Positions 6,889-62,379 are shown, counted from the stretch's first letter. The stretch is DNA of 64,000 nucleotides from Nannocystis bainbridge (GCF_028368995.1 NZ_JAQNDL010000002.1:1824001-1888000); one strand, 5' to 3'. Program-made: numbers and translations. The notes: a model not told the origin generated them from the sequence alone.

Positions 6889-6944
6889 CGTCCCTCGGGA
6901 CATGTCCCCTGCGACATGTCCTTCATCACCTGCTCTATCCGACA
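6889..6944. repeat. Phased array of 14-bp TGTCC-N4-GGACA-like palindromes (4 units)
   Basis: cgtccctcgggaca|tgtcccctgcgaca|tgtccttcatcacc|tgctctatccgaca, directly after the nqrM stop. Confidence 0.85.
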
Positions 6945-7006
6945 GGTCGTGGGGCGCGTCGACTGGCGTGATCGCGGCAGATGAGCGACGCTCGCCGCGG
7001 TCTGGC

Positions 7007-8155
7007 ATGACGATCACCGACGCGGCCTACCTCGACGAGCGGCTCCGGGGCCTGGACCTGGCCCCGCTCCCGGTCTGGGTGCTGGACCCCGAGGTGATGC
7101 GGATCGCCTGGGCCAACGGCCCCGCGCTCGACATGTGGCGCGCCCACAGCCGCGAGGAGCTGGCCGGCCGCGACTTCCGCGTCGGCCCCGAAACCGTGCT
7201 CACGCGCCTTTACACGGCCATCGCGCGGGTCCGCGAGGGCCACTCGTGGTGGGACGAGTGGACCGTCTACCCGCGCGGCCAGCCGGTCCAGATCAAGGTC
7301 CACTTCTCGCCGCTGCCGCTGGCCGACGGCCGGATCGTCGTCCTCCAGCACGTCGTCCCGCGCGACGAGGGCCCCGCGCCCGATCAGCTGCGCGGCGTCC
7401 AGGCGCTCGTGCTCACGCCGATGATCGTCGCGCAGGCCGAGTTCGACGGCCGGATCGTCATGAAGAACCCCGCCGCGATCCTGGCCTTCGGTCGCCTCGC
7501 CGATCACTGGCCCGCGTGGTTCGTCGAGCCCGCCGCCGCCGAGGCCATGCTCGCCGCCGCTGCGGCCGGCGACAGTGTGCGCCGCGAAGTGCGGGTGACC
7601 ACCGAAGCCGGAGAACGGGTCCACGTCGTCGAGGTCTGCCCCGCGCGCGACGCCGTCACCGGTCGAATGATGGCGCTCATCCATCACGCCGACGAGACCG
7701 CGCGTCACGGCGCCGAGGTCGAGGCCGCGCGTCACCAGCGGCTCGCCGAGGAGCTCGACCGCACCCTCGCCCTCGTCGATCATCAGCGCCGCGAGATCCT
7801 CGGCCTGTCCGCCCCGCTCCTCGACATCGACGACCACACCCTCGCCATCCCGCTCGTCGGCGCCTTTGATCGCGAGCGCGGCGCCGACCTCGAGGCGCGG
7901 GTCCTGCCTGCCATCGCCGAGCGGCGCGTCCACACCGTCCTGCTCGACCTCACCGGCACCCTCGCCGGCGACGTCGCCAACGCCGAGCAGCTCATGCGCT
8001 TCGTGCGAGCGATCCGCCTGCTCGGTGCGCGCGCGATCCTCACCGGCATCCGCCCCGCTCTGGCCCGCGCCCTCGTCGAAGTCGGCTTCGACGGCGGCGA
8101 GACCCCGTTCGCTCGCTCGCTCGCCGCCGGCCTCGAGCTCGCGCGAGCTCGCTGA
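7007..8155 (+). CDS. PAS-like/STAS domain protein (RsbR-type)
   Basis: C-terminal LSAPLLDIDDHTLAIPLVG...LLDLTG...RLLGARAILTGIRP STAS signature. ATG 7007 preferred because the ORF-track start (6902) lies inside the repeat array. Confidence 0.8.
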   Translation: MTITDAAYLDERLRGLDLAPLPVWVLDPEVMRIAWANGPALDMWRAHSREELAGRDFRVGPETVLTRLYTAIARVREGHSWWDEWTVYPRGQPVQIKVHFSPLPLADGRIVVLQHVVPRDEGPAPDQLRGVQALVLTPMIVAQAEFDGRIVMKNPAAILAFGRLADHWPAWFVEPAAAEAMLAAAAAGDSVRREVRVTTEAGERVHVVEVCPARDAVTGRMMALIHHADETARHGAEVEAARHQRLAEELDRTLALVDHQRREILGLSAPLLDIDDHTLAIPLVGAFDRERGADLEARVLPAIAERRVHTVLLDLTGTLAGDVANAEQLMRFVRAIRLLGARAILTGIRPALARALVEVGFDGGETPFARSLAAGLELARAR

Positions 8156-8253
8156 GCCCCGCGGACGCCAGCCTCAATCTCGCGTGCTGCCCTGATGGCA
8201 GACCCGAAGCCCGTCCGCCGCTGTGACGTGCGACGCCGAGCTCCTCACTCATC

Positions 8254-8295
8254 TTACCTTCGAGACATGTTCATTCGAACATGTCCCATCAACCA
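8254..8295. repeat. 14-bp palindrome array (3 units)
   Basis: ttaccttcgagaca|tgttcattcgaaca|tgtcccatcaacca, between convergent genes. Confidence 0.75.
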
Positions 8296-8299
8296 TTCA

Positions 8300-9643: not shown

Positions 9644-9704
9644 GCGCCCGCGATCGTCCCAGCCTTCGCCGGCCGCGGCAAGTCGCCGCGCGCCTTCGAC
9701 CCGC

Positions 9705-10925
9705 TCACTCCGGGTACAGCAAGAATTCGCGGCGGCGGGCCACGAACGCCGCGCGCTGCGGCTCCTGGCTCGCCGTCATCTCCGCCAGCGACGTCTGCGC
9801 CTCGATCGCCGCGCGCAGCCACGGCCCGCCGGCCAGCAGATCGATCGCCGGACGATCGGCCACGAACTCGTACGGCTCCGTGCGCCAGCGCATCGCCCCC
9901 TGTCCCAAGCGCCAGGTCGCGCGCAGCACCGCCCAGCTGGTGCGCAGCGAGCGGACCGCCGCCGGCTCGCGCACGTGCAGCTGGACCCCGCCGCAGCGGC
10001 GCCCGGCGAACTTCTGGAACATCGGCTTGAACCCGAGCGGCCGCACTTGCAGCCCCGGCAGCGCCGCGTCGTCCTCTTGCAGCGCCGCCGCCAGCGCCTG
10101 CCCGTCGAGCCACGGCGCGCCGAAGATCTCGAACGGCCGGGTCGTTCCGCGGCCCTCGCTGAGGTTCGTGCCCTCGAGCAGGCACTGCCCCGGATACACC
10201 AGCGCCGCGCCCATCGTCGGCATGTTCGGCGACGGCAGCACCCACGGCAGACCTGTCTCGAAGAACAGCATCGATCGCGCCCAGCCCGCGCACTGCAGCA
10301 CCTCGAGCCGCTCGCACCCGACCCGCCCGCGCTCGAGCATCGCCATGCGCGCCAGCTCGCCGAGCGTCATCCCGTGACGGACCGCCACGTCGTGCAGCCC
10401 GACGAAGCTCTCCTCGTTGGCCGCGATCGCGCCGCCCTCGACGAGATCGGGCGACCCGCCGAGCGGGTTCGGCCGGTCGAGGATCAGCACCCGCAGCCCC
10501 GCCTGCAGCGCCACCTCGGCGGCCAGCACTGCCGTCCACACGTACGTGTAGTAGCGGCTGCCGATGTCCTGCAGATCGATCACCAGCCACGCCGCCCCGT
10601 GGAACATCTCCGGCGTCGGGCTCAGGCTGGCGAACGTCTCGCCGTACAGGCTGTACGCCGGGACCGCCGCCCGCGGCGCCTCGCCGGCCACCACCTCCAT
10701 GTCCTGCGCCGCCGCGTCGAGCCCGTGCTCCGGGCCCAGCAGGCTGACCACGCGCGCCCCGATCCGGGCCATCACCGCCGTCGCGTGCTCGAGCTCCGCC
10801 GTCACCGACGCCGGGTGGCACAGCAGCGCCACCGGCACCTCGCGCAGCCGCGGACCCTCGCCGGCGGCCAGGCGATCGAGCCCCGTCTTCACCGCGGGCG
10901 CGCGGCCACCTGACCCTTCAGACAT
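9705..10925 (-). CDS. namZ: Exo-beta-N-acetylmuramidase NamZ (DUF1343)
   Basis: VKTGLDRL, GPEHG, DLQDIGSRYYTY, DRPNPLGG, RHGMTLGELA, PSPNMPT, LSEGRGTTRPFE. ATG at 10925. Confidence 0.9.
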   Translation of the reverse strand: MSEGSGGRAPAVKTGLDRLAAGEGPRLREVPVALLCHPASVTAELEHATAVMARIGARVVSLLGPEHGLDAAAQDMEVVAGEAPRAAVPAYSLYGETFASLSPTPEMFHGAAWLVIDLQDIGSRYYTYVWTAVLAAEVALQAGLRVLILDRPNPLGGSPDLVEGGAIAANEESFVGLHDVAVRHGMTLGELARMAMLERGRVGCERLEVLQCAGWARSMLFFETGLPWVLPSPNMPTMGAALVYPGQCLLEGTNLSEGRGTTRPFEIFGAPWLDGQALAAALQEDDAALPGLQVRPLGFKPMFQKFAGRRCGGVQLHVREPAAVRSLRTSWAVLRATWRLGQGAMRWRTEPYEFVADRPAIDLLAGGPWLRAAIEAQTSLAEMTASQEPQRAAFVARRREFLLYPE

Positions 10926-10938
10926 GTCATGAGCGAGC
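10911..10938. repeat. 14-bp palindrome pair overlapping the namZ start
   Basis: tgacccttcagaca|tgtcatgagcgagc. Confidence 0.5.
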
Positions 10939-11082
10939 ACGCCCTCGCTATAGCGGTCCGCCGCCTCGCCCTCAAATTCTCGGGCGCTCCCGCCGCGGGG
11001 CGGCCTCGCCCCTCGCCCGGTCTGCGCCCCCCTGATTCGTCGCTTTTTTGGGCCGCTCGCCGGGGCTTGGCATCCTACCTGT

Positions 11083-11853: not shown

Positions 11854-12150
11854 GCCGGGGGCCCGCCGCGAGATCCTCCCACCGAGGCCACGTTTTTCCC
11901 GCCAACGGCGTCGGTGGGCTCGCGCGCGCGGGAAAAGTTCGGTAAAACGCGGTCCCTTGCCCCCAGAGGAGCATTGACGCTGCTTTGCCTTGTCTCTATC
12001 CTCGCAGGCAACATCTCTGGCGTATCACTTTCGACACACCAGCGATCGGCGCTCCACGGCCCCCACGGGCCGCTCTCCACGGCCTCCGGGCCTGCATCTG
12101 CTCTTCCCGGCCCATCGGGCCTGTAGCGTGACTACCAAGGGGATCCGGCC

Positions 12151-16068: not shown

Positions 16069-16070
16069 CC

Positions 16071-16140
16071 GGTCCCTTCGGACATGCCCTCTCGGGCATG
16101 TCCGGGAGAGCATGTCCGAGAGAGCATGCTCCGTCGGACA
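16071..16140. repeat. 14-bp palindrome array (5 units)
   Basis: ggtcccttcggaca|tgccctctcgggca|tgtccgggagagca|tgtccgagagagca|tgctccgtcggaca, 2 nt after the PBP1A stop. Confidence 0.9.
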
Positions 16141-16775: not shown

Positions 16776-17405
16776 ATGCTATTCAACCAGACGAGTATCC
16801 TCCTCGCGTCGTTGACCGTCGCGTTCGCCATCCCCTTCATCGAGCCGACGTGCGACCTCGGACCGCACGATCCGGGGAAGTGCCACGACCGGCACGACTG
16901 CGAAGACGACGAGGTCTGCGTCGACTACAAGTGCGAGCCCGAGAAGGAGTGTTACAAAAACGCCGACTGCGACAACGACGAGAAGTGCGTCGACGGCGAG
17001 TGCGAGCCCGACAAGGACAAGGAGTGCTGGAAGGACGACGACTGCGACAAGGGCGAGAAGTGCGTCGACGGCGAGTGCGAGCCCGACAAGGACAAGGAGT
17101 GCTGGAAGGACGACGACTGCGACAAGGGCGAGAAGTGCGTCGACGGCGAGTGCGAGCCCGACAAGGACAAGGAGTGCTGGAAGGACGACGACTGCGACAA
17201 GGGCGAGAAGTGCGTCGACGGCGAGTGCGAGCCCGACAAGGACAAGGAGTGCTGGAAGGACGACGACTGCGACAAGGGCGAGAAGTGCGTCGACGGCGAG
17301 TGCGAGCCCGACAAGGACAAGGAGTGCTGGAAGGACGACGACTGCGACAAGGGCGAGAAGTGCATCAACGGCGACTGCAAATATACGAAGGACTGCCGAA
17401 TCTGA
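16776..17405 (+). CDS. Secreted Cys-rich repeat protein
   Basis: Signal-like N-terminus followed by 25-aa repeats ECWKDDDCDKGEKCVDGECEPDKDK. Confidence 0.85.
   Translation: MLFNQTSILLASLTVAFAIPFIEPTCDLGPHDPGKCHDRHDCEDDEVCVDYKCEPEKECYKNADCDNDEKCVDGECEPDKDKECWKDDDCDKGEKCVDGECEPDKDKECWKDDDCDKGEKCVDGECEPDKDKECWKDDDCDKGEKCVDGECEPDKDKECWKDDDCDKGEKCVDGECEPDKDKECWKDDDCDKGEKCINGDCKYTKDCRI
17022..17378 (+). repeat. Intragenic 75-bp near-perfect tandem repeat (about 4.7 copies)
   Basis: gagtgctggaaggacgacgactgc... recurs at 17022, 17097, 17172, 17247 and 17322. Confidence 0.95.
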
Positions 17406-17583
17406 CAGCCGATGCGCCCGCTCTTTCTGACGAGCCCGGGAGCGGCGGTTCGTGTCGGAATCATTGTTCGTTCAGCCCGACGCCGTGCCCGCCAGTTCGG
17501 GCGCGGCGGCGTCCGCTCGCCTCAGACGGTCCGGGAATCGCTGCGCCCCGCCCTGCCGACGATGCTCGCCAGCCGACCGATCC

Positions 17584-17625
17584 TGTCGCATCGCACATGT
17601 CCGATGCGACATGTCCTCACGGCCT
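17584..17625. repeat. 14-bp palindrome array (3 units)
   Basis: tgtcgcatcgcaca|tgtccgatgcgaca|tgtcctcacggcct. Confidence 0.8.
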
Positions 17626-17701
17626 TCTTCGTTCGCGGCCCGGTACTGGCCGGGCCTCGCCGTGCCGGACCGGCGAGCGCCGGCCCGCGGCGCGAGCTCG
17701 C

Positions 17702-18565: not shown

Positions 18566-18642
18566 GAGCACTTCGCCCAGTCTGGTAGGGCATTTGATTT
18601 CGGATCAAAGGGTCGCGGGTTCAAATCCCGTACTGTTCACCA
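18566..18642 (+). tRNA. tRNA-Arg (anticodon UCG), atypical
   Basis: Cloverleaf: acceptor GAGCACT/ACTGTTC, D-arm GCCC-AGTCTGGTA-GGGC, anticodon arm TTTGA-TTTCGGA-TCAAA, T-arm GCGGG-TTCAAAT-CCCGT, encoded ACCA end. Confidence 0.85.
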
Positions 18643-19870: not shown

Positions 19871-19993
19871 GCCACTCGCGGGCATGTCCGTGGCGACATG
19901 TCCTCGTAGACATTCGATGCATGTGCCCTTTCGGACATTCTCGAAAGGACATGTTCGATTCGACATGTCCTCATGGTCATGTCCGTGAAGACA
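19871..19993. repeat. 14-bp palindrome array (8 units, one 11-bp offset)
   Basis: gccactcgcgggca|tgtccgtggcgaca|tgtcctcgtagaca|(11 nt)|tgccctttcggaca|ttctcgaaaggaca|tgttcgattcgaca|tgtcctcatggtca|tgtccgtgaagaca. Confidence 0.9.
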
Positions 19994-21797: not shown

Positions 21798-21839
21798 TGA
21801 CCGAACGGCCATGTCCTTGTGAACATGTCCTACACCATC
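21798..21839. repeat. 14-bp palindrome array (3 units)
   Basis: tgaccgaacggcca|tgtccttgtgaaca|tgtcctacaccatc. Confidence 0.7.
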
Positions 21840-22574: not shown

Positions 22575-22602
22575 CGAACTCCGGGACATGTCCGCCGGGA
22601 CA
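22575..22602. repeat. 14-bp palindrome pair
   Basis: cgaactccgggaca|tgtccgccgggaca, directly after the stop codon. Confidence 0.7.
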
Positions 22603-25361: not shown

Positions 25362-25417
25362 TGTCCGCGAGGACATGCCCGAAGGGACCTGCTCTTCGGA
25401 GCATGTCTTCCGGGGCC
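25362..25417. repeat. 14-bp palindrome array (4 units)
   Basis: tgtccgcgaggaca|tgcccgaagggacc|tgctcttcggagca|tgtcttccggggcc. Confidence 0.85.
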
Positions 25418-25577: not shown

Positions 25578-25647
25578 TGCCCATACGAACATGTCAAAAA
25601 CGCCATGTCCTCGCGGACATGCCCGTACGAACATGTCCCTCGCTACA
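25578..25647. repeat. 14-bp palindrome array (5 units)
   Basis: tgcccatacgaaca|tgtcaaaaacgcca|tgtcctcgcggaca|tgcccgtacgaaca|tgtccctcgctaca. Confidence 0.88.
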
Positions 25648-28837: not shown

Positions 28838-30718
28838 TTGCGGCGCGCGAGCCGCCGCACCGCCCTCGCTCTCGGCCTCGCGCTGATCGGCTGTCGTCCG
28901 CAGGCGACCACCGCCCCGAGCGACACCGGTCCGGTCGCGTGGATCGACGCCGACCCGCTGCAGCCGGCCGAGATCCCCGCCGGCGGCGCTCCGCGGGCCG
29001 CCGTGGCCCGCCTCGATCGCCTGCTCGACCTCCTCGACGCCGCGCGCTTCACCGGTGACGAGGCCGCGCGCGAGGCCCTGTGGACTGCGCTCGGCGGCGC
29101 CGCCATGGGTCGCGGCCCAGAGGCCACGCGCGAGGCCGAGACGCGGCTCTTGACCGCCGCGCTGGGCCTCGATCTCAAGCCCGGCCTCGACGACGACGCG
29201 CGTGGTTTCCTGGCCGGCGCCATCACCTTGCTGTCCGCCGATCTCGGGCTCGTCGCCGGCAGCGAGGACCTCTCGGTGCGGGTCGCCGCCTACCGCAACA
29301 TCGCCGAGGACGGCCACCCGCGCGCCGCCGACAACGCTCGCTGGCGCCTCTACGACCACGTGCGCGGCTGTTTGGCCGGCGCCGCCGCGGCCACGCCCGA
29401 GCGTCGGCTCGAGGTCGCGGTCCACGGCCTGTATGTCCGCGAGGACAGCCTGGCCGCCTGGCTCGACGACCGGGCCGTGCACGCCCAGGCCCCGTGGCCG
29501 CCGCCCGCCGAGATGTGGGGCCTCCTCGTGGCCGAGCGCGACGCCCTCGCCGCCCTGCCGCGCTGGCGCGGCGCCCTGGCTCGCCGCGACCGCGACGATG
29601 CTGTCCTTCAGGACACCTTCCTCGCCGCCCTCCCGGCCGCCCGCGACAGCGCATGGGACCTCCAGCGCGTGCCCGCCGGGACTGGCCGCAAGGACAGCCT
29701 CGCTCCCGTCGTCGGCATCGCCGGCGAGGAGGTCACGGTCGACCTCGGCCGCCCCGGCGCGCGCCGCAGCAGCCGCGGCGCCCCCGAGCTCGTGCGCGCC
29801 GTCGAGGCCGCCCTGGCCCGCGACGGCCGCGGCGCCGTGCTCCTGGTCGCCCCGCCGCTGCTGCCCTCGCCCGCGCTGGGCTCGATCCTCCGCACCCTGC
29901 TCGACGCTCGCGTCGCCCGCATCGAGTCGGCCGTGCGCGAGCCTCGGCTGCCCGAAGGGACAGGTGACATCGTCGCCACCCTCCCGCTCGAGGTCGTGCG
30001 CCCCAGCGACCAGGGCCCGGCCGCGCAGGCCCTCGCCCGCGCGCGCGTGCGGGTCCACCTCGGCGGCCGCGGCCCGCGGCTGGCCGTCGACGGCGGCTGG
30101 CTCGACCTCCTGCCCGGCCCCTCCGACCTCGACGCCCAGCTCGCCCGCCTCGACCGCGCCTACCCGCGCGAGCGCATGATCACCCTGACCCTCGGCGACG
30201 ACGTGCTCTACCAGCAGTTGCAGGATCTGCTGCGCGCGCTGCTCGGCGGCCCGCAGCGGCGCTTCGACGTCGTCGCCTGGACCCCGGCCGCCGCCCCGCC
30301 GCCCGCCGAGCCGGCCGACAAGGCCGTCGCCGAGGCCCGCCGCAAGCTCGAGGTCCGCAGCGAGCTGTTCCAGCGCACCGCCAGCGCCGGCCTCGTCCTC
30401 CCGGCCCCGCCGCCCGGCGCCCCGTCGGCCCCGCTCCTGCCCGAGGGCGACCAGAAGCGCGCCGAGGCGCTCGCCCTCGGCTTCGTCCGCTGCCTGCCCG
30501 AGCTCGAGACCCCGCTGCGCCCCGGCGAGGCCGTCGACGTCGAGCTCCGCTTCGAGGAGGGCCGCCTCGCCGGCATCGAGCCCAAAGCGCCCAGGACCCG
30601 CGTCGCCGCCCCGCGCCTGGCCGCCCTCAAGACCTGCATCGAGGACGAGGCCCGCGGCTTCCGCCTGCGCGAGCAGCAGGCCGCCGTGCGCTTCATCGTC
30701 CGCGTCCGCCCGAGCTGA
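28838..30718 (+). CDS. Hypothetical lipoprotein with possible ExbD-like and TonB-C/AgmX-like domains
   Basis: Lipobox LIGC after RRASRRTALALGLA. Start uncertain (TTG 28838 or ATG 28673). Confidence 0.65.
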   Translation: MRRASRRTALALGLALIGCRPQATTAPSDTGPVAWIDADPLQPAEIPAGGAPRAAVARLDRLLDLLDAARFTGDEAAREALWTALGGAAMGRGPEATREAETRLLTAALGLDLKPGLDDDARGFLAGAITLLSADLGLVAGSEDLSVRVAAYRNIAEDGHPRAADNARWRLYDHVRGCLAGAAAATPERRLEVAVHGLYVREDSLAAWLDDRAVHAQAPWPPPAEMWGLLVAERDALAALPRWRGALARRDRDDAVLQDTFLAALPAARDSAWDLQRVPAGTGRKDSLAPVVGIAGEEVTVDLGRPGARRSSRGAPELVRAVEAALARDGRGAVLLVAPPLLPSPALGSILRTLLDARVARIESAVREPRLPEGTGDIVATLPLEVVRPSDQGPAAQALARARVRVHLGGRGPRLAVDGGWLDLLPGPSDLDAQLARLDRAYPRERMITLTLGDDVLYQQLQDLLRALLGGPQRRFDVVAWTPAAAPPPAEPADKAVAEARRKLEVRSELFQRTASAGLVLPAPPPGAPSAPLLPEGDQKRAEALALGFVRCLPELETPLRPGEAVDVELRFEEGRLAGIEPKAPRTRVAAPRLAALKTCIEDEARGFRLREQQAAVRFIVRVRPS

Positions 30719-30747: not shown

Positions 30748-30873
30748 TGCCCCCCAGGACATGGCCCAGAGGCCATGTCCTCCGAGACCGGCGCGATCGA
30801 CCATGCCCTGATCGCCATGTCCTTCGAAACCTGTCCCTCCGAGCATGTCCCCGAGGCCATGCTCCTCCGACCC
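30748..30873. repeat. 14-bp palindrome array (9 units, longest in window)
   Basis: tgccccccaggaca|tggcccagaggcca|tgtcctccgagacc|ggcgcgatcgacca|tgccctgatcgcca|tgtccttcgaaacc|tgtccctccgagca|tgtccccgaggcca|tgctcctccgaccc. Confidence 0.9.
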
Positions 30874-33838: not shown

Positions 33839-34396
33839 GTGAGCGGACCTATCTATGAAACGCTGCTCGAATTCAGCCGCACCCTCCGCGACGATCACCT
33901 CGACGAAGATCTTTCACGCATCGAGCTGCCCAACAACCGCGTGCTCGACACCCAGGTAATTCACGCCCGCGGCAAGCTCGACGGCCGCCCCGTCGTCGTC
34001 TCCTACCACTCGCACTGGATCGTCGGCTCCACCTATCGACCGCATATCCTCGAGGTCTTCGTCACCGGCAACCACCTCAAGACCGAAGCCGAGTGCCGCG
34101 CCCGCAGCTTCCTCGACGACGTGCTGCGGTGGTTCGGCGGAGGCGGCCTGCGCGGCCCCGACCCGATCTTCACCGAACGACGGATCGACGCCGCCAGGGA
34201 CGCCGACCTCACCGACCTCGACCGCCCCGAGTTCACCGCCCGCCTCGCCAACCTCAGCGGCCTCGTCTACTGCCACAAGGTCCAGATCCAGGCCGGCACC
34301 GGCATCAACGCCTGGTTCCACGCCCTCCCGTTCCAGCGCTCGCTGCCCCAGCTCCAAGCCCTCGTCCGCACCGTCGCCGACCTCGCATCCACATGA
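33839..34396 (+). CDS. Hypothetical protein
   Basis: 185-aa ORF with strong C-ending codon bias. Confidence 0.7.
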   Translation: MSGPIYETLLEFSRTLRDDHLDEDLSRIELPNNRVLDTQVIHARGKLDGRPVVVSYHSHWIVGSTYRPHILEVFVTGNHLKTEAECRARSFLDDVLRWFGGGGLRGPDPIFTERRIDAARDADLTDLDRPEFTARLANLSGLVYCHKVQIQAGTGINAWFHALPFQRSLPQLQALVRTVADLAST

Positions 34397-34477
34397 CCGT
34401 ATCGACATGCTCTCGGAGACATTTTCGATAGGACATGTCCTATAGGACATTGTCCACACAACATGTCCTATCCGACA
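34394..34477. repeat. 14-bp palindrome array (6 units)
   Basis: tgaccgtatcgaca|tgctctcggagaca|ttttcgataggaca|tgtcctataggaca (perfect palindrome)|ttgtccacacaaca|tgtcctatccgaca. Confidence 0.9.
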
Positions 34478-34803
34478 CTCGATCGCGTCCCGAGCAACGT
34501 CTTCCACGCTGCCTAACTCACCCGAACCCAAGTCAGCGCATCGCATAGCGTCGCGTCTGCACCGAGCCGCGCCGCACATGTCCTATCCGACACTCGATCG
34601 CGTCCCGAGCAACGTCTTCCCACGCTGCCTGACTCATCCGAACCCAAGTCAGCGCATCGCATCGCATCGCATCACGTCTGGCCCGAGCCGCGCCGCACAT
34701 GTCCTATCCGACACTCGATCGCGTCCGAGTAACGCCCCCCTACGCCGCCTGACTCACCCGTACCAAGCCAGCGCCTCGCCTCGCATCTGCACCAAGCCGC
34801 GCC
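34461..34803. repeat. 115-121-bp tandem repeat x3, each copy starting with a 14-bp palindrome
   Basis: acatgtcctatccgacactcgatcgcgtcc... at 34461, 34576 and 34697. Confidence 0.9.
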
Positions 34804-34966: not shown

Positions 34967-35181
34967 AATCGCCGCGCAACGAGCCACGCCGTTATCGTCG
35001 CGAGAAAGCGCCCGTTCGGCGGCCAGCCCTGGCCGTCGAACGGGCGCCGACGCTCTCTCCCAGGAGACACCCCGCATCGAAGCCCACGACGGCGAGGCTG
35101 CCTCTCACGGCTGCAGCCGTGCCTGGGGGTCCGGGGAAGGGTCGACCACAGCCCCCCCGAAGGACATGTCCCCACCTCCAT

Positions 35182-38100
35182 CTAGAACGGCTGCAAGAAC
35201 GTCAAATTCACCCCGACCCGCGGCAGCTGAAACTCCCCCGGCGCCACCCCTTGATACTCTGCCAGATAATCCGGCAGCACCTCATCGAGGCACGTCGAGC
35301 GTCGGCGGACCAGCGGCACCGCCACATCGAACCGGATGAACTGCGGCGTCACCCCCAGCAGCTGCAGGAAGGCCGTCACCCCGTAGCCGACCTGCCCGTA
35401 CCAGCTCTCCTTCCCGAACCACCCGCGCAGCGTATCGCACGGCGACACCGAAGCCGCCCCTGTGAACAGCGTCCCCCCGATCCCTCGCAGCCAGAACAGG
35501 TGGACCAGGTTCACATTGAAGTTCGACCAGAACATGTGCCGGTACTCGAGCTGCGCCAGCGCCACCCCGCGGCCGAACAGCTCGTTCCCCCCGTACGCTC
35601 CGAGCCCGTCGACCCCGCCCGCGCGCACCAGGCTGCGGAACTCCGGCCGGCCCATCAGCGGCACCATCATCGTCAGCTCGACCCGGCTCGCCAGCGTGTG
35701 TTGGTGTGCCAGCGGCCAGATGTGCACCCACGACGCCGACGCCGTCAGCCCGTGCCGGTGATCCGGCGCTGGCACCCCCGTGCGCAGCGTCTCCTGCGCG
35801 TACAGCCCGAACGCCAGCCGGTGCCCGCGATCGGGCCACAGGCTGAACTTGCGCGTATCGTCGATGATCGCCAGCGACTGGGCGAACCGCACCCCGCCGA
35901 CCCCGTCGAGCCCGCGCGCTGTCAGCGAGTGGACCTCGCCGAACATGCGCACCCGCCCGCGCCGGCGCCGGCGGTTGACCTTGTCGCCGAACCACACCGT
36001 CGCCCCGCCGCCGATCGCCGCCGCCGACTCGCGGTCGCGGTGCAGCTGCAGGTGGCCGATCGATCCGAGGTCGCGGCGCCGGCTCATCTCGAACAGCACC
36101 CGCCCTGACAGCGCCTGCAGCCGCGCCGCCGGCGTCTGCCCCGCCAGGAACTCCGACGCCGACACCTCGAAGCCGAACCCCGTGTAGACGAAGCGGAAGC
36201 TCGTCGGCGAGCGATTGTTGTAGAGCGGGTCGACGTTGCGCCGCGGCCCCTGCGGCTCCTCGAGCAGGCGCGTGCGCGGGTCGACCATCACCGAGCGCAG
36301 CTTGTGCTGCGTCTCGAGCGTGAACACATGGTCGATCGTACCTGACCCCGGGGACACCTCGTGATTGTTCCCCGACCCCAGCGACCCGTTCCACACCAGA
36401 TAGTGGCGCTGCCCGCCGCGCTCGGTCGCCAGCACCTGCACCGGCTCGACCGCCGCGTGCTCGCCTTCTCGCCGGATCGTGATCGTGTGCTGCCAGCGGC
36501 CGTCATCGAGCGGCACGCTGTCGACCTTCGCCACCGAGTAATCGACCGCCGGATAGGCCGCCAGCCACTGGTCGAAGAACCACCCGAGCGAGCGCCCGTA
36601 GGCCGCCTCGGCCGCGGCCACCGGGTCGCCGGTGCGGTCGCGCGCGACCCTGTCGTAGAACGCCTCGCGCTGGCCCGGCGTCAGCAGGTCGACCATCTTC
36701 TCGTGGATCCGGCGCCCGGTCGGCAGCGGGTGCGAGAAGAACAGCGGGTGCAGGCGCAGCGGCATGACGTCCTCGCTGCCGCGGAAGTAGCTCTGGGCGA
36801 ACGCCGCCTGGCCGGTGTAGAGGAAGTTGTCGACCATCGGCACGAACGTGATGCGCCGCAGGATGTCGCTGGCGAACTCGTCGCCCTGGGCCCGGCGGGC
36901 CCGCCACACGTCGAGCAGCGCCGTCGCCACCGCGTCGTAGAGCCACAGGTCGGTCGACGGATCGTGGCGACCCACATAGGCCCCGTACATGATCTCGTCG
37001 AGCATCGCCCGGGCCGCCGCCGCCTGATGAAAGCCCTGGAACCGCCGGCCCGGCGACACCTGGGCGAACTGATCGCTGACCAGCACCGCCGACGGGTGCG
37101 CCTGGGCGATCTCGGCCCGCAGCGGCCCCTGCACCACCGTCAGGCGGCTGTCGGGCGGCGGCTCCAGGCCGGCGATCGTGGCCACGTCGATCGCCTCGCG
37201 GGCGATCCGCAGCATGTGACCCGGCACGTCGCGATAAAGCTGCAACCAGCGCTCGTCGGGCACCTGATCGCCCGGGCGCCAGAACATGTGGAGCACCTCG
37301 ATCCGCACCCCGCGGTGGGTCTCGTGGGCCCGCTTCCACCGCGGGCCCCAGAACACCTCGGGGTACGCGACCTCGTCCGCCCCGACCGCCCCGCTGACGA
37401 CCACCACCTCGTCGCGCCCCAGCGCCTTGGCCTCGCTGGCCGTCGGGACATGTCCTGGAGACCATGTCGGAACCGCGGCGAACCGCGCGTCGACCGTCCA
37501 GCGCGCCGGCGTCACGATCCGCGCGTCGGGGTCGAGGCGCGCGCCGCCGCGGGCCGGCGCGCTCGGCAGCGGCGCCACCGCCCCGCTCAGGCTGCAGCGC
37601 CGGCGCGAGCAGCCGAACGGCCAGTAGCGGCGCGGCACCTCGACCGTGTACGCCAGCGTCAGCGTGTCTGTCCCTTCGGACATGGTCACCTCGACGTCGC
37701 GGCGCGCGTGGATCTGGCGGACCCGCGCCGCGCCGGTGTGCTCGCCGACCGTCAGCCGCCCGCGGTGGAACGGCCCGTCGAGGTAGTTCGCCTTGGCCAC
37801 CTCGTCGAGCTCGTTCGGCTCGCGCCCCAGCGCCTCGGCGAAGTTCAGCAGCACCAGCGTCTCGCCGGCGCGGGCCGGTCGGCTCAGCGTGTAGGTCGCC
37901 TCGCCGACGGCCGCCCCGCCTGCTCGCGGCACTCGCTTGCCGTCGGGCAGCCGCTCACCGCCTCGCACGACCTCGAGGCGGACCGCCACCGCCGTCACCG
38001 CGAGCGCGTCACTCGTCGGCGCCAGGTCCGTCGCCGGTCCGGTCGGCGGTTCCGCGTGAGCTTGCAGCGGCGAAAGGCCCGACGGATCTGAAGCGGCCTC

Positions 38101-38410: not shown

Positions 38411-40747
38411 ATGACTTCGCTTTCTCGATGGTTCCGCGGCGCGCGCGCCCCAGGTTCGAACGGTATGACGGCACAGGCTCGACCGCTGCCGGTCAGCGAG
38501 TGGCTCCGCGGCTTCACCCTCGGCCTCCTGGTCGCCGTCGGCTGCGGCCGCAGCGACTACCTCGGCCCCTGTGCCAGCGACGCCGACTGCGGCACCGGCT
38601 ACATCTGCGCCGCCGACGGCGTGTGCATCGAGGTCGGCGGCGAGTGCATCGTCGACGCCGACTGTCCTGACGGCGAGAAGTGCCTCAACTACGAGTGCGT
38701 CGGCCCGCAGGTGTGCGACGACAACCTCGAGTGCCCCCCGGGCACGATCTGCGTGATCCCCGAGGGCGAGGACATGGGCGTGTGCCAGGGCCCGCCGCCG
38801 ACCTGCCCGCCCTGCCCGGTCGGCACCGAGTGCGACGACAACGGCCAGTGCGTCCCGGTCGACCCGCCCGTCTGCCAAAACGACTTCGAGTGCCCCCAGG
38901 GCCAGATCTGCGTCGACGGCACCTGCACCGACCCCGGCGAGTGCGAGTTCGACTTCGAGTGCCCGTTCGAGCAGCAGTGCGTCGAGGGCCAGTGCGTCCC
39001 GGTCGGCTGCGACTTCTGCCAGTGCGAGAACGACTTCGACTGCCCGTTCGGCCAGGTCTGCGTCGACAACTTCTGCCAGCCGGAGTGCTTCAGCGACGAC
39101 CAGTGCCCGTTCGGCGAGGTCTGCCTCGACGGCTCCTGCGTCACCGGCGAGTGCACCATCGACCAGGACTGCCCGCCCAACGAGGTGTGCGAGAACGGCT
39201 TCTGCCAGGGCCAGTTCTGCTTCGACAGCACCGACTGCGACCCCGGCGAGCAGTGCATCGATTTCCAGTGCGTGCCCGGCGGCATGTGCCAGACCGACGC
39301 CGACTGCCCGCAAGGCACCGAGTGTGAGAACGGCGCCTGCGTCCCGATCGCCGGCTGCAACACCGACCTCGACTGCCCGCAGGGCCAGCAGTGCCAGGGC
39401 GGCGTGTGCATCCCCGGCCAGCTGTGCATGAACGACGCCGACTGCCCGCCCGGCGAGCTGTGCGTCGGCGGCGTCTGCTTCTTCCCGCCCGAGTGCATCC
39501 AGGACGCCGACTGCCCGGCAGGCCAGCTGTGCGTCGACGGCGACTGCCAGGATCCGCCGCCGCCGATCTGCATGTCGGACCTCGACTGTCCTCCGGGACA
39601 GGTCTGCAACCTGCAGACCCTGATGTGCGAGCTGTCGCCGCCGCCGCAGTGCATCGACAACGACGACTGCCCCGCCGGCCAGATCTGCGACGCCAACCAG
39701 CAGTGCGTCGACGCTCCGCCCCCGCAGTGCATCGACAACGACGACTGCCCCGCCGGCCAGATCTGCGACGCCAACCAGCAGTGCGTCCCCATCGTCCCCC
39801 AGTGCATCGACAACGACGACTGCCCGGTCGGCCAGATCTGCGACGCCAACCAGCAGTGCGTCCCCATCGTCCCCCAGTGCATCGACAACGACGACTGCCC
39901 CGTCGGCCAGATCTGCGACGCCAACCAGCAGTGCGTCCCCATCGTCCCCCAGTGCATCGACAACGACGACTGCCCCGTCGGCCAGATCTGCGACGCCAAC
40001 CAGCAGTGCGTCCCCATCGTCCCTCAGTGCATCGACAACGACGACTGCCCCGTCGGCCAGATCTGCGACGTCAACCAGCAGTGCGTCCCCATCGTCCCCC
40101 AGTGCATCGACAACGACGACTGCCCGGTCGGCCAGATCTGCGACGCCAACCAGCAGTGCGTCCCCATCGTCCCTCAGTGCATCGACAACGATGACTGCCC
40201 GGTCGGCCAGATCTGCGACGCCAACCAGCAGTGCGTCCCCATCGTCCCTCAGTGCATCGACAACGATGACTGCCCGGTCGGCCAGATCTGCGACGCCAAC
40301 CAGCAGTGCGTCCCCATCGTCCCTCAGTGCATCGACAACGACGACTGCCCGGTCGGCCAGATCTGCGACGCCAACCAGCAGTGCGTCGTCGCCCCGCCCC
40401 CGGTGTGCGTCGGCAACGACGACTGCGTCATCGACGAGGTCTGCATCGCCGGCACCTGCACCTTCATCGGGGACTGCCAGACCGACGTCCACTGCGCGAC
40501 CGGCCAGACCTGCGAGGCGGGCGTGTGCACCGGCCAGCCGCAGTGCACGACCAACGCCGAGTGCGCCGCCAACGAGTTCTGCCTGTTCGGCGAGTGCTTC
40601 GCGCCGAAGATGTGCGTGAAGAACAAGGACTGCGACACTGGCCAGGTCTGCGTGTTCGGCCTGTGCTCCGCCGGGGTCGAGTGCGCCGAGCATGCCGACT
40701 GCCCGGTCGGCCAGGCCTGCTTCGAGGGTCACTGCAACACCCTTTGA
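38411..40747 (+). CDS. Cys-rich repeat lipoprotein (CxxDxDCxxGxxCxxGxC repeats)
   Basis: Lipobox VAVGC; roughly 30 four-Cys modules. Confidence 0.88.
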   Translation: MTSLSRWFRGARAPGSNGMTAQARPLPVSEWLRGFTLGLLVAVGCGRSDYLGPCASDADCGTGYICAADGVCIEVGGECIVDADCPDGEKCLNYECVGPQVCDDNLECPPGTICVIPEGEDMGVCQGPPPTCPPCPVGTECDDNGQCVPVDPPVCQNDFECPQGQICVDGTCTDPGECEFDFECPFEQQCVEGQCVPVGCDFCQCENDFDCPFGQVCVDNFCQPECFSDDQCPFGEVCLDGSCVTGECTIDQDCPPNEVCENGFCQGQFCFDSTDCDPGEQCIDFQCVPGGMCQTDADCPQGTECENGACVPIAGCNTDLDCPQGQQCQGGVCIPGQLCMNDADCPPGELCVGGVCFFPPECIQDADCPAGQLCVDGDCQDPPPPICMSDLDCPPGQVCNLQTLMCELSPPPQCIDNDDCPAGQICDANQQCVDAPPPQCIDNDDCPAGQICDANQQCVPIVPQCIDNDDCPVGQICDANQQCVPIVPQCIDNDDCPVGQICDANQQCVPIVPQCIDNDDCPVGQICDANQQCVPIVPQCIDNDDCPVGQICDVNQQCVPIVPQCIDNDDCPVGQICDANQQCVPIVPQCIDNDDCPVGQICDANQQCVPIVPQCIDNDDCPVGQICDANQQCVPIVPQCIDNDDCPVGQICDANQQCVVAPPPVCVGNDDCVIDEVCIAGTCTFIGDCQTDVHCATGQTCEAGVCTGQPQCTTNAECAANEFCLFGECFAPKMCVKNKDCDTGQVCVFGLCSAGVECAEHADCPVGQACFEGHCNTL
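39647..40388 (+). repeat. Intragenic 75-bp tandem repeat (about 10 copies)
   Basis: cagtgcatcgacaacgacgactgc... encoding QCIDNDDCPVGQICDANQQCVPIVP. Confidence 0.95.
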
Positions 40748-44278: not shown

Positions 44279-44362
44279 TGCCCGCGAAGACATGTCCATC
44301 GCGCAATGTCGCAACAGACATGTCCCCGATGACATGCCCCTCGAGACATGCCCCCGGGGACA
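44279..44362. repeat. 14-bp palindrome array (6 units)
   Basis: tgcccgcgaagaca|tgtccatcgcgcaa|tgtcgcaacagaca|tgtccccgatgaca|tgcccctcgagaca|tgcccccggggaca. Confidence 0.92.
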
Positions 44363-49736: not shown

Positions 49737-49794
49737 GGGCGGATTATCCCGATCTGGTGGAACACGACAACAAAAACTCGTGTACCTGGCCCTG

Positions 49795-51194: not shown

Positions 51195-51247
51195 AGTGAA
51201 GTGAAGCGACGCGCGGCGGGTCGGGCGCGCTGCTAAAGTCCGCCGGC

Positions 51248-52720: not shown

Positions 52721-52866
52721 CCTGGCGCAGCGGACATGTCGCAAAGGACATTCCTGGAGCGCCAGCCCGGGCTGCCCCGCACGCCGCGAGGACCGGCTGG
52801 TCGCCCCGACGTGGCGGCGATGACCTGGCGCATCGGACATGCCGCAAAGGACATGCCCTGGAGCGC
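52690..52866. repeat. Approx. 74-bp direct duplication of the gene 3' end plus 14-bp array
   Basis: ccggctggtcgccccgac.tggcggcg.tgacctggcgca.cggacatg.cgcaaaggaca at 52690 and 52793. Confidence 0.85.
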
Positions 52867-52953
52867 ATGTCCGGTTCGACATGTCGTGAAGGACATCGAA
52901 CTTCGCAGGTCCGTGCTCTCGGAGGCTTCCTCGCGGACATGTCCTGAGCCTCG
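52826..52953. repeat. 14-bp palindrome arrays (5 + 2 units; 3 more at 52723-52764)
   Basis: tggcgcatcggaca|tgccgcaaaggaca|tgccctggagcgca|tgtccggttcgaca|tgtcgtgaaggaca ... cttcctcgcggaca|tgtcctgagcctcg. Confidence 0.88.
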
Positions 52954-52961
52954 GTCCCGGG

Positions 52962-54056: not shown

Positions 54057-54147
54057 CTCCGATCGGCATAGCGGATCGCCGGCCCGCCGTCGACGTCCGC
54101 AAGGCCGGGCCCCGTGTGACCGACGTTCGGCGGCCGGCCCGCCGCTC

Positions 54148-56613: not shown

Positions 56614-56769
56614 CGCCGACTATACCGTCGCGTGACCGCGACAGATCCGCGCCAGCGCGGCCGGGGCGTGCACGCGAGCTCACGCTCCCCGCTGCGCCCG
56701 CGCCCGCGGGGCCCCGGCTCCGCCGACAAAGCTGGCTGCCTTTGCTAGCCTCGGGACCTCGCGCCCGTT

Positions 56770-58236: not shown

Positions 58237-58338
58237 GGCGCTGACTCGCGGGCGCGCGGCAGGGCTCGCGCGGGTCGCTCCGCAACTGCCGACTGCGGCT
58301 CGAGAGGCCGACCCGCACGCGGCCGCCGTCGCGGGCAC

Positions 58339-58459
58339 GAAAAAAAGACACGCCTCTCTGCGCGCCCTCTTCGAGAGGCCGACGCACACGCGATCGCCGG
58401 CACGCACGCGGCCGCATCGCGCGCACGGAGAAAGGCGCGCCTCTCGGCGCGCCCCCTTC
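58339..58459 (-). terminator. Two tandem, duplicated hairpin+U-tract terminators for the PPIase gene
   Basis: On the minus strand: ggcgcgccgagaggcgcgcc-tttct and gggcgcgcagagaggcgtgtc-ttttttt. Confidence 0.6.
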
Positions 58460-58469
58460 ACGTCTCACC

Positions 58470-58483
58470 TGTCCTTGCGGACA
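58470..58483. repeat. Single consensus 14-bp palindrome
   Basis: tgtccttgcggaca. Confidence 0.7.
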
Positions 58484-58490
58484 GCTTCGC

Positions 58491-59726: not shown

Positions 59727-59953
59727 TCTGTTCTCCTGGCCGAAGCGAAGCGGGCTGAGCCCGTGCAGACCGGTCGCCGCATTCGCGCGGCGACCGCAGG
59801 GCGTCGGCGGCGCGAGATTGTAAGCCGGAGCGAGCGTCCGATCCAAGCGGCGACAAGCGCGGCCCCCCCGGCGCAACGGACCCGCCCCCCGGAGACCGCG
59901 CGTGAGCCTCCCCCGCGGCGCCTGCGGCGATTTTCGCGTAGCATCCCGCGCCC

Positions 59954-61348
59954 ATGACCCGCCTGGTCCAGATCCGCGGCACGAGGACGGCGCCGGAGCC
60001 GCCCATGACCGCGCAGGAGCTGCCCGCCACGTCGGAGCTCCCCGGAGTCGCCGGGCCGCGCGTCTACGTCGAGACCCTCGGCTGCCAGATGAACGAGGCC
60101 GACTCTTCGCTCATCGTCGGCCAGCTGGCGGCCCGCGGCTACGTGCGCGTGCCCGATCCGGCGACCGCCGACGTGATCCTGCTCAACACCTGCGCGGTCC
60201 GGGAAAAGGCCGAGGAGCGGGTCTACGGGCGCACCAGCCAGCTGCTGCGGCACAAGAAGGACAATCCGGATCTGGTGTTCGGCATTACCGGGTGCATGGC
60301 CGAGCACCTGCGCGACAAGGTCCAGAAGCAGGCGCCGCACATCGGCCTGGTCGCCGGCCCCGACAGCTACCGCCGGATCGGCAGCCTGGTCGACCGCGCG
60401 CGCGCCGGGGAGCGCGTCGTCGACGTCGCCCTCGACCGCGAGGAGACCTACGACGGCCTCGACGGGGTGCCCGACGACGACGGCGTCAGCGGTCAGGTCA
60501 CGATCCAGCGCGGCTGCGACAAGTTCTGCACGTTCTGCGTGGTCCCGTACACCCGCGGCCGCGAGCGCGGCGTGGCCCCGCGCGAGGTCCTGCGCCAGGC
60601 CAGGCAGCTGGCCGAGCGCGGTTACAAAGAGATCGTCCTGCTCGGCCAGACGGTCAACTCGTACGTGTGGGAGGACGCGAGCTTCGCCGACCTGCTGCGG
60701 GCGATCGCGGCGCTCGATGGGATCGAGCGGATCCGCTTCACGAGCCCCTACCCCGTCGACTTCACCGACCCGCTGATCGCGACGATGGCCGAGCTCGAGA
60801 AGGTGTGCCCGTACATCCACCTGCCGGCGCAGTCCGGCTCGGATCGGATGCTGACGGCGATGAAGCGCGGCTACTCGCGCGGCGAGTTCGTCGATCTGGT
60901 CGGCCGCCTGCGCGCCGCCATGCCCGACCTGGCGCTGTCGACCGATCTGATGGTCGGCTTCTGCGGCGAGACCGAAGAGGATCACGCCGAGACGCTGTCG
61001 CTGATGCGCGAGGTCCGGTTCGACTCGGCGTTCATGTTCCGCTACAGCGACCGCGGGATCACCTACGCCGCCCGCAAGCTGCAGGACGACGTGCCCGACG
61101 AGGTCAAGGGCCGCCGCCTGCAAGAGGTCATCGAGCTGCAGGAGCAGCACACCCGCGCGTCGCACCACGCCCGCGTCGGCAAGCGCGAGCGCGTGCTCAT
61201 CAGCGGCCTGTCCCACCGCGGCGACCGGGTGCTCGGCCGCACGCCCCGGTTCCAGAGCGTGCTGCTGCCCCTCGGGACAGGTTCTCCGGGACAGACGATC
61301 GAGGTCGCCATCTCGGCGACGACGGGCCACTCGCTCATCGCCAGCTGA
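59954..61348 (+). CDS. miaB: tRNA-2-methylthio-N6-dimethylallyladenosine synthase
   Basis: TLGCQMNEADS, LNTCAVREKAE, GCDKFCTFCVVPYTRG, HLPAQSGS, C-terminal TRAM. Confidence 0.95.
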   Translation: MTRLVQIRGTRTAPEPPMTAQELPATSELPGVAGPRVYVETLGCQMNEADSSLIVGQLAARGYVRVPDPATADVILLNTCAVREKAEERVYGRTSQLLRHKKDNPDLVFGITGCMAEHLRDKVQKQAPHIGLVAGPDSYRRIGSLVDRARAGERVVDVALDREETYDGLDGVPDDDGVSGQVTIQRGCDKFCTFCVVPYTRGRERGVAPREVLRQARQLAERGYKEIVLLGQTVNSYVWEDASFADLLRAIAALDGIERIRFTSPYPVDFTDPLIATMAELEKVCPYIHLPAQSGSDRMLTAMKRGYSRGEFVDLVGRLRAAMPDLALSTDLMVGFCGETEEDHAETLSLMREVRFDSAFMFRYSDRGITYAARKLQDDVPDEVKGRRLQEVIELQEQHTRASHHARVGKRERVLISGLSHRGDRVLGRTPRFQSVLLPLGTGSPGQTIEVAISATTGHSLIAS

Positions 61349-61361
61349 GCGCGGCGCCGTC

Positions 61362-62214
61362 TCACTCGGCGGCCGCCGTCGACTCCGCGCGAGCCAGCAG
61401 CGCCGCTCGCCGGGCCCGGCTCAAGTACAAGAAATTCGCCGGCAGCCCGAAGCGCAGCGGCGCCTGCGTCGCCGGCGAGTCCTTCGCCGGGAAGCGCTCT
61501 GCCAGCGCCGCCGCCGCGCGCACGAGCGTGCGGTCGATCGCCCCGAGGTCGTACTCGGCCCCGAGCTGCAGCTTCGCGCGGACTGGCGGCGGCACGATCG
61601 ACACCGCGGCGCGGGCGACCGCGCGGTAGAAGAACCCGAGCCCGCGGGCCCAGTCGGTCCATCATCGCCGCGAAGTCGGCCTCGCACGTGAGCACGTTCT
61701 GGACCCCGTAGAGGCGGGCGACCGGACCGCTCTCGGCGAAGTAGCGGTCGCGGTCGGCGGCGGACACCGGGGCGACGAAGCGGTCGTACGCGGTGAGGAA
61801 CCCGTAGACCGCGGTCGCGCTGACCCAGTCGAGCAGCTCCGGGTCGAGCGCCCGGTACGGTTCACCGGCCGGCGTCGCGCCGTTGACCTTCGCGTGCAGC
61901 TTGTTGACGCCGGCGATCACCCGCCGCGCTGCGCTCTGCGGCCCGAACGCGCCGACCATCGCCGCGATCGCGGTCCGCCGCGAGCGACCGACCGGGTCGG
62001 CCTTGTACGTCGAGTGGTCCCATACGCCGCTGCGGATCCGCGCGTCCGCGAACTCGAGCAGCACCGCCGCGATGCCGCCGATCGCCAGCGCCACCGGGTT
62101 CTTGTAGATGCGCCAGTGGACCGAGTCCGGGCCGACGAAGCCGGGCTCGCCCCGCGGGTTCGCGTAGTCGATCTGCCAGCCCATGTACCGCGCCCGCGAA
62201 TCACTGGAGCCCAT
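61362..62214 (-). pseudogene. Oxygenase MpaB/DUF2236 family, frameshifted
   Basis: MGSSDSRARY...GVWDHS...YRALDPELLDWV...MMDRLGPR is in one frame; GLGFFYRAVARAAVSIVPP...PANFLY continues in another frame from about 61645. Confidence 0.75.
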
Positions 62215-62309
62215 GCCGCACCTCCCGAGGACAGCGATCGTATGACCGTCCTTCGCGCCGCGGGCAAGCCTCGCCGCGAGCGGGCCCGCGCTCAGAGTCA
62301 CGTCGGGGG

Positions 62310-62379
62310 CCGTCCTAGTCACATGTTCCTTCAGACATGCTCTTTCGAACATGCCTTCGAGGCCATGTCCGGGGCGGCT
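62310..62379. repeat. 14-bp palindrome array (5 units)
   Basis: ccgtcctagtcaca|tgttccttcagaca|tgctctttcgaaca|tgccttcgaggcca|tgtccggggcggct. Confidence 0.85.

Follow-up and report, generated by a model that had tools for sequence, protein, structure and literature searches.

Repetitive extragenic palindromes (REPs) and bacterial interspersed mosaic elements (BIMEs) of enterobacteria and pseudomonads are clade-specific palindromic units, present in hundreds to thousands of extragenic copies, which form regular arrays at gene 3′ ends and in convergent gaps. REPs are stem-loops of 20-40 nt that show compensatory changes, alternate in orientation with linkers in between and are tied to a transposase (REP-associated tyrosine transposase, RAYT), and in E. 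coli they are bound by gyrase, IHF and Pol I. Head-to-tail units of exact period are also found in the met boxes of MetJ, the hexamer arrays of Fur, the heptads of omega and the ParR-parC system, where each unit takes one dimer, cooperative neighbours spiral around the helix and 2-10 units are typical; such arrays are present at a few promoters or at one centromere per replicon. In a 64,000-nt stretch of the Nannocystis bainbridge genome (G000:C3:1824001-1888000, referred to as the window; all window coordinates count from its first letter), the 14-bp palindrome TGTCC-N4-GGACA is repeated head-to-tail, with conserved ends and variable centres. Like REPs and BIMEs, these units are high-copy, clade-specific, arrayed and located at 3′ ends and in convergent gaps, but the Nannocystis unit is 14 bp long, self-symmetric and joined to its neighbours at zero spacing, it lacks covariation and a RAYT, and it also occurs as conserved single sites within genes. 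As in the MetJ, Fur, omega and ParR arrays, short units stand head-to-tail at an exact period, but there are more than 1,000 Nannocystis arrays, and they lie at gene 3′ ends across the chromosome. We tentatively interpret the unit as the recognition site of a putative abundant, Nannocystis-specific homodimeric DNA-binding protein that would polymerise at transcription-unit ends, a reading that we rate as plausible, if somewhat short of probable.

The assembly analysed (G000) has 11.05 Mb in five contigs, a G+C content of 71.5% and a completeness of 90%. TGTCC-N4-GGACA occurs in it 1,987 times and GGACATGTCC 956 times, compared to ~9.5 copies expected from base composition, and the window alone holds 10 exact units versus 0.08 in dinucleotide shuffles. 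Distances between copies of GACATGTC across the genome peak at 14 (223), 28 (75), 42 (69), 56 (38) and 70 bp (12), with at most 9 counts at every other lag. A position weight matrix (PWM) refined over five rounds, with matches chained at 14-bp steps and one weak unit tolerated, returned 1,890 arrays of two units, 992 of three and 1,057 of at least four. The thresholds of this finder are arbitrary, and its two- and three-unit rows contain false positives (121 and 49, respectively, in an order-5 Markov simulation of contig C3); arrays of at least four units number 270 on C3 and 3 in the simulation. The array signal is real and far above chance. A first-pass annotation of the window had proposed an exact 14-bp period with conserved ends and variable centres. 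The spacing peaks fall only at multiples of 14, the PWM reproduces the conserved ends and free centres, and both the enrichment over a Markov background and the 14-bp spacing peak were recovered genome-wide. Its figures of about 16 intergenic loci and 75-80 units were slightly high, as direct reading together with the PWM finder gave 14 loci with 67 units, and the claimed loci 10911 and 35153 are limited to a single good junction with no more than two weak units. Rows of at least three units in the window number 26, of which 13 are intergenic arrays; the other 13, weak or gapped three-unit rows, were rejected as false positives, 12 of them lying inside gene calls (8 of these being copies of a single coding repeat of 75 bp) and one, at 11997, between calls. 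Tandem Repeats Finder at a minimum score of 30 detected few arrays (16074, 34418, 44316 and a 42-bp row at 30764), because the units are too divergent for most of the arrays to be found in this way.

The array at 6889 reads CGTCCCTCGGGACA TGTCCCCTGCGACA TGTCCTTCATCACC TGCTCTATCCGACA and, as the unit ends abut, the junction GGACA/TGTCC is a 10-bp palindrome too. The PWM is symmetric (T1.84, G2.92, T/C3.55/.26, C4.74, C5.73, followed by four weakly specified positions and the mirror image), with ~60% A/T at positions 7-8 in a genome of 71% G+C. Dominant centre tetramers are CTTC/GAAG, GATC, TCGA, CGAA/TTCG and GTTC/GAAC, all of which, by arithmetic from the PWM and the centre counts, are ~3-6 times more frequent than predicted from single positions. 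Exact units isolated from any array, a component missed in the first-pass annotation, number 1,152, including 485 inside gene calls, whereas 283 palindromes of the same composition have far fewer isolated copies (median 6, 95th percentile 29). Exact junction 10-mers were found outside arrays only 98 times, and the junction was rejected as the elementary site: the elementary element is the 14-mer. Isolated units are mostly without flanking A/T. Across junctions, position 12 and position 3 of the next unit are complementary less often than expected (.38 vs.44, z=-8), and terminal units have an outer half-site that is weaker than the inner one. After removal of the array mean, unit strength is correlated at -.07 to -.09 at lag 3, compared to -.17 to -.26 at lags 1, 2, 4 and 5, and this pattern persists when arrays with evident internal duplications are dropped. 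Together with the excess of 42-bp spacings, it points to a three-unit register of four helical turns; a realignment at every third site had been predicted from the window, and the relative 42-bp periodicity of unit strength agrees with it.

The position of the arrays relative to genes was determined with our own codon-usage caller, which is crude (7,865 calls covering 78-82% of each contig; stops are exact, starts approximate). Among the 1,057 arrays of at least four units, 494 are located in convergent, 355 in tandem and 41 in divergent gaps, and 167 inside gene calls. An array of at least three units is present in 43% of 1,427 convergent, 14% of 4,342 tandem and 6% of 1,453 divergent gaps. 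The distance from stop codon to array has a median of 13 nt and modes at -3 (93 cases, with the TGA stop forming unit positions 1-3), +2 (69) and +3 (53), and 357 of the 494 convergent arrays consist of 5-6 units, equivalent to 70-84 bp. Arrays were found at 1,329 of the 5,925 gene 3′ ends that are followed by a gap of at least 40 nt. The proximity to stops and the preference for convergent genes, first noticed in the window, hence hold genome-wide. They had been taken as evidence against a regulon only; the flanking genes in the window are indeed functionally unrelated and, with so few divergent gaps occupied, operators of a promoter regulon were rejected, but the distribution is also the classic one of REPs and terminators and points to a function at transcription-unit ends or to tolerance there. 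A crude scan for hairpin-plus-T structures gave matches at 3.7% of array-free 3′ ends on the sense and 2.2% on the opposite strand, and at 11.8% and 10.5% of array-bearing 3′ ends, respectively. The genome has almost no hairpin-plus-U terminators, and the missing strand polarity at array-bearing ends led us to reject intrinsic terminators as an explanation of the arrays.

Along the genome, none of the five contigs is free of arrays, and nearly all bins of 200 kb contain them; there are 5-19 arrays per 100 kb, with a higher density on C3 and C4. The motif itself has a density of approximately one unit per kb in coding and intergenic DNA alike. The frequency of arrays in convergent gaps rises with the typical, strong codon usage of the gene from 17.5% to 48% across quintiles, part of which may stem from spurious low-scoring gene calls. 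The sites parS, NBS (bound by Noc), matS and SBS (bound by SlmA) are palindromes of 13-16 bp that are read by dimers; a genome has tens of them, either restricted to one macrodomain or kept out of it. In contrast to these, Nannocystis units occur in thousands, in tandem and on every contig. The analogy to matS, parS and NBS is weak, because the arrays are spread over five contigs rather than one macrodomain, and sites of this class were rejected. Several observations on this distribution can be added. GC skew on C3 flips from plus to minus at ~1.4-1.6 Mb, ~300 kb before the window, marking a replication origin or terminus. C3 carries 13 of the 17 arrays of at least 9 units, and C3 and C4 have the highest array density. 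The longest array of the genome (G000:C3:1237890-1238183; 21 units) is A/T-richer than usual and follows a gene for 127 aa. A gene-free stretch of 2.2 kb with 80% G+C (G000:C4:257400-259650) has six arrays in one divergent gap, and forms a higher-order repeat in which copies ~165-265 bp apart each contain the same 4-unit block, TGCTCGAAGGGACA GGTnCGAACGGACA GGAnGCTTCGGCCA TGTCC... Genes beside divergent-gap and very long arrays gave no lead to a binding protein, and neither did an initial list of small proteins encoded with strong codon bias.

With such a placement, the arrays might act as RNA: runs of UGUCC-loop-GGACA hairpins could terminate transcription without a U-tract or shield mRNA from exonucleases, in both directions between convergent genes. 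A start at a median of 13 nt past stops, the filling of 43% of convergent gaps and a genome nearly devoid of canonical terminators would all fit such an element, as would the common loops TTCG, CGAA and GAAA. In addition, arrays taken as RNA fold far better than mononucleotide shuffles (mean z=-4.2, 91% below -2). However, 3′ regions without arrays reach a minimum free energy per nt (-0.44) at least as good as that of the arrays (-0.41). Complementarity among 5,597 units in the 1,057 arrays is.404 for positions 3-12 (.399 expected),.580 for 4-11 (.572) and.581 for 5-10 (.580). As these values equal the product of the marginals, a change in one arm is not balanced by a change in the opposite arm, and from the per-pair frequencies only ~10% of array units have five perfect pairs. 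When the 355 arrays (1,886 units) in tandem contexts were oriented by gene, the largest strand asymmetry of the PWM was.06, and centre tetramers on the sense strand were about as frequent as their reverse complements, e.g. CGAA 41 and TTCG 40, which led us to reject hairpins with UUCG tetraloops. Moreover, the exact 14-nt phase and the lag-3 periodicity would serve no purpose in independent hairpins, the 485 isolated units in gene calls are conserved at synonymous sites (see below), and no Rfam family matches the arrays in the window at gathering thresholds. We therefore regard an RNA 3′-end element as unlikely, and the evidence together favours symmetric recognition of duplex DNA over a maintained hairpin of RNA or single-stranded DNA. 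The unit thus behaves as the symmetric double-stranded site expected in the first-pass annotation for a cooperative dimeric protein; the binding itself we infer.

The taxonomic range of the motif was determined in a sample of relatives, several of which are incomplete metagenome-assembled genomes (MAGs). A double-junction pattern is present in all 11 Nannocystis genomes (1-223 matches, scaling with assembly size), in one of eight other genera of the family (2 matches) and in none of 12 genomes from the other families of the class. Scanning one genome per prokaryote species gave 78 loci, 64 in Nannocystis, 11 in Nannocystaceae or Myxococcales MAGs and three as single matches in unrelated taxa. 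No lag-14 peak was detected in 200-kb samples from two other genera of the family. A scan of viral contigs in IMG/VR led to one match that looks unrelated to the arrays (L185:1001-1038), a short direct and inverted repeat with CTCTCGGACATGTC twice in a viral contig of 65% G+C.

Within the genus, four other species are collinear with the window, and their genes there are 78-94% identical. For the 13 array-bearing gaps of the window, the array was present in 25 of 27 species-by-locus comparisons in which both anchors mapped, with different unit numbers and centres. All five species have 5-7 units in the gap after 52720, which in four of them measures 66-94 bp and is filled completely by the array. 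In the gap after 6886, compared in six species, CATGTCC, CGACATGTCC and CGACA are invariant, while centres and surrounding spacer vary. Alignment of 60 arrays between G000 and a second genome (G010) gave identities of.93 and.91 at positions 2 and 13 compared to.67-.73 at positions 6-9; 43 more arrays aligned in their flanks only and 46 had no match in the stretch compared. The same holds for coding DNA. For 38 isolated units inside genes, chosen as exact in G000 and compared with 1.28 Mb of G010, motif bases at third codon positions were identical in 134 of 142 cases, versus 941 of 1140 in 45-nt flanks (Fisher p=9e-5) and 35 of 43 in the centre. Control palindromes of like composition (159) were no better conserved than their flanks (366/428 vs 4112/4770, p=.71), and motif and controls differ with p=.005. 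The conservation of in-gene units at third codon positions indicates that the motif is under purifying selection as a nucleotide sequence, even in coding DNA.

These data also bear on the possibility that the arrays are a selfish or mutational by-product, i.e. a REP-like repeat that is spread or expanded enzymatically, through cleavage at TG/CA boundaries and duplication of 14 bp, and that piles up harmlessly at 3′ ends without a function for the host. The restriction of the motif to one genus, its depletion from promoter-bearing divergent gaps and the differing unit numbers among species at one locus could be explained in this way. Some arrays also contain clear recent local duplications of 14, 28 or 42 bp, and centres of adjacent units are slightly more alike than expected by chance (.31-.33 vs.27-.29). 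The latter difference is so small that a slippage micro- or minisatellite was rejected. A search for Y1 transposase RAYT (PF01797) at E<=0.001 gave 0 matches in the 90%-complete genome G000, with the control search positive in 6 of 14 reference genomes. REPs or BIMEs, whose 3′-end distribution fits, were rejected in view of this result, the 14-bp unit and the missing covariation. Furthermore, an all-against-all BLAST of the 1,057 arrays with 40-nt flanks revealed no array families with a shared interior (17,823 of 18,467 array-to-array matches are shorter than 40 nt), and ends of miniature inverted-repeat transposable elements (MITEs) or insertion sequences were rejected as well. The 32 matches of at least 120 nt appear to be 100% identical contig-end duplicates, as is every top match listed; several arrays and their flanks are identical in both orientations at the contig ends C1 ~4.52-4.53 Mb, C2 1-2 kb and ~3.02-3.03 Mb, and C5 ~711-717 kb, probably due to unresolved large repeats at assembly breaks. 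Clustered regularly interspaced short palindromic repeats (CRISPR) were rejected by direct reading, with a conserved junction of 10 bp and a variable centre of 4 bp instead of repeats of 23-50 bp with unique spacers of about the same length. The claim of the first-pass annotation that the arrays are neither slippage products nor REP hairpins nor CRISPR thus stands, as does the conservation at orthologous loci that it had proposed to examine, and all three checks that it had named as able to refute its reading turned out in favour of that reading. As motif positions are kept while centres drift, and as an insertion of 14 bp cannot create in-frame sites, yet 485 exact units in gene calls are under purifying selection, a selfish origin appears quite improbable.

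A further explanation would be an uptake or self-recognition signal, favoured by a transformation receptor or another system for self and non-self, in which molecular drive enriches the motif and lets it accumulate where it is tolerated. The DNA uptake sequence (DUS) of Neisseria and the uptake signal sequence (USS) of Pasteurellaceae are asymmetric 9-12-mers that are not known to form phased tandem arrays. Like these, the Nannocystis motif is clade-specific, occurs about once per kb in genes and between them, is kept across species and is often found at terminators. Its conservation at synonymous sites, its clustering at gene ends, as for DUS pairs in Neisseria, and its scarcity in 20-kb bins whose codon usage is atypical and whose G+C is lower (Spearman.33 and.48, 550 bins) would agree with such a signal. 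Neither strict phasing in arrays of preferentially 5-6 units nor dyad symmetry nor a period of 42 bp is known from uptake signals, and we consider this explanation very unlikely.

How a homodimeric protein might use these sites can be outlined from their geometry. Single sites would be scattered through the chromosome, genes included, and head-to-tail tiling at zero spacing would occur where the sequence is otherwise unconstrained, which is past stops and above all in convergent gaps. With half-site centres 9 bp apart, a dimer would contact adjacent major grooves on one face of the helix, and dimers would lie side by side over ~70-84 bp (5-6 units). As a step of 14 bp corresponds to a rotation of ~120 degrees, dimers could tile without clash and would regain the same register after each 42 bp. 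A cooperative stabilisation from inside the array would fit the observation that terminal units have a weaker outer half-site. The likeliest role of the resulting filament would be to mark or insulate transcription-unit ends, as a roadblock, a termination aid or a topological or nucleoid anchor. Such a boundary role is suggested because arrays of 70-84 bp follow stops and favour convergent gaps in a genome almost without intrinsic terminators. In its strongest form, a polymerising dimer on these arrays would be a general bidirectional signal for the end of a transcription unit (roadblock, terminator or insulator), with single in-gene sites as low-affinity points of nucleation or anchoring, which we consider doubtful. 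It is also possible that long arrays are merely tolerated in 3′ gaps and that the real function is genome-wide binding, served by the single sites in genes as well.

The symmetry of the unit resembles that of operators for dimeric helix-turn-helix proteins, with two inverted half-sites ~9 bp apart and a free spacer, and with half-sites kept while centres vary across species. The box of the LuxR-type regulator CviR is CTGNCCNNNNGGNCAG (PMC12114271) and the PadR dyad is ATGT-8N-ACAT (PMC10295242). The half-site geometry TGnCC-N4-GGnCA is identical to that of the central 14 bp in the CviR box, down to the weak specification of position 3, and TGT-N8-ACA of the unit fits the PadR dyad, both being a resemblance of sequence only; a 16-bp dyad of the LuxR or PadR type that is tiled with a 2-bp overlap would give a 14-bp period. 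In contrast to operators of these types, isolated units are mostly without A/T flanks, and the placement is not in promoters. For the MrpC consensus, GTGTC-N8-GACAC, a literature search gave no confirmation.

Several points weigh against a polymerising dimer at transcription-unit ends. The binding protein rests on inference from sequence, and operator-like sites are normally located in promoters, which these arrays avoid. Placement at 3′ ends could reflect tolerance and not function, conserved single sites within genes fit awkwardly with a roadblock, and 167 of the 1,057 arrays lie inside calls of the crude gene caller. The weaker outer half-sites at array ends might also be due to a role of the junction. 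Symmetric double variants are moderately over-represented, at positions 4-11 only (38 T-A vs ~11 expected after correction for background, with the other eight positions exact), which fits either pairing or a paralogous dimer. Finally, the better folding of arrays compared to shuffles leaves room for a role as RNA.

A published description of the arrays was not found in literature on Nannocystis repeats, myxobacterial REPs and the junction 10-mer, a search in which most subscription journals were outside reach; for the 10-mer, the matches listed were mainly coincidental, namely to the half-site consensus of p53. Two wider questions are open, how transcription units are delimited in very G+C-rich bacteria that have few intrinsic terminators, and which role the abundant clade-specific intergenic repeats of bacteria play. 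The Nannocystis motif offers a tractable case, as it is sharp, present in thousands of copies at an exact phase and with a preferred array size, and under purifying selection that includes synonymous sites. Its restriction to a single culturable genus with motif-free sister genera should make the binding protein discoverable and the function testable. A dedicated polymerising DNA-binding protein, if it indeed marked gene ends genome-wide, would represent a principle new to the organisation of bacterial genomes; were the motif instead an uptake signal or a novel type of selfish repeat, it would be the first such case in Myxococcota.

The arrays and single units of the window are listed in Table 1.

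Table 1. Motif units in the window; G001, G003, G007 and G010 are relatives compared.
Feature	Position	Strand	Remarks
4-unit array	6889..6944	.	2 nt past stop of last gene of nqr-apbE cluster; kept in five other Nannocystis genomes with invariant motif ends
3-unit array	8254..8295	.	Convergent gap; ends 4 nt before stop of minus-strand gene at 8300; 4-6 units there in G001, G003 and G007
One good and one weak unit	10911..10938	.	No call by PWM finder
5-unit array	16071..16140	.	2 nt past stop of PBP1A-like gene
3-unit array	17584..17625	.	Convergent gap
2-unit (19885) and 5-unit (19924) arrays	19885..19993	.	11-nt out-of-phase linker; convergent gap
3-unit array	21798..21839	.	G001 without array at same gap
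2-unit array	22575..22602	.	1 nt past stop codon
4-unit array	25362..25417	.	
5-unit array	25578..25647	.	Ends 6 nt before stop of minus-strand cytochrome c gene
Isolated exact unit	29434..29447	.	Inside gene; no difference among the five species, third codon positions nearby variable
Isolated exact unit	29602..29615	.	Same gene as unit at 29434..29447; identical in all five species
9-unit array, longest in window	30748..30873	.	Between two plus-strand genes; 7-8 units in G001, G010 and G007; 5+2 in G003
6-unit array	34394..34477	.	First unit starts with TGA stop of gene 33839-34396
One GGACA/TGTCC junction, weak half-units on either side	35153..35180	.	
Isolated exact unit	37669..37682	.	Inside minus-strand gene; identical in 4 of 5 species
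6-unit array	44279..44362	.	Convergent gap
2-unit (52723) and 5-unit (52826) arrays	52723..52895	.	Convergent gap
Isolated single unit	58470..58483	.	Convergent gap; half-sites kept (one with a single change) and centre different in three other species; 3′ half only in G003
3-unit array	62324..62365	.	

Other features of the window include a Na+-NQR/Rnf-type operon (1051-6711, NqrB to NqrF-like genes followed by ApbE) that ends 2 nt before the 6889 array. A search for RNA runs gave matches in contigs of soil, root and rhizosphere metagenomes or metatranscriptomes only (at most 0.43 of the sampled words). Four RNA runs placed on the window yielded metatranscriptome contigs of relatives over the nqr genes (1069-5552) and nothing interpretable at the arrays. 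Directly after the 34394 array, a tandem repeat of 116-121 bp (34461-34787, 2.8 copies, 85-88% matches) was found, each copy of which begins with a motif unit, ACATGTCCTATCCGACA. Near-perfect coding tandem repeats of 75 bp are located at 16960-17378 and 39647-40387 (5.6 and 9.8 copies, 97-98% matches) in cysteine-rich DUF7107/Dickkopf-like proteins, and their copy number varies among species. The sole Rfam match in the window at gathering thresholds is a tRNA gene at 18566-18639.

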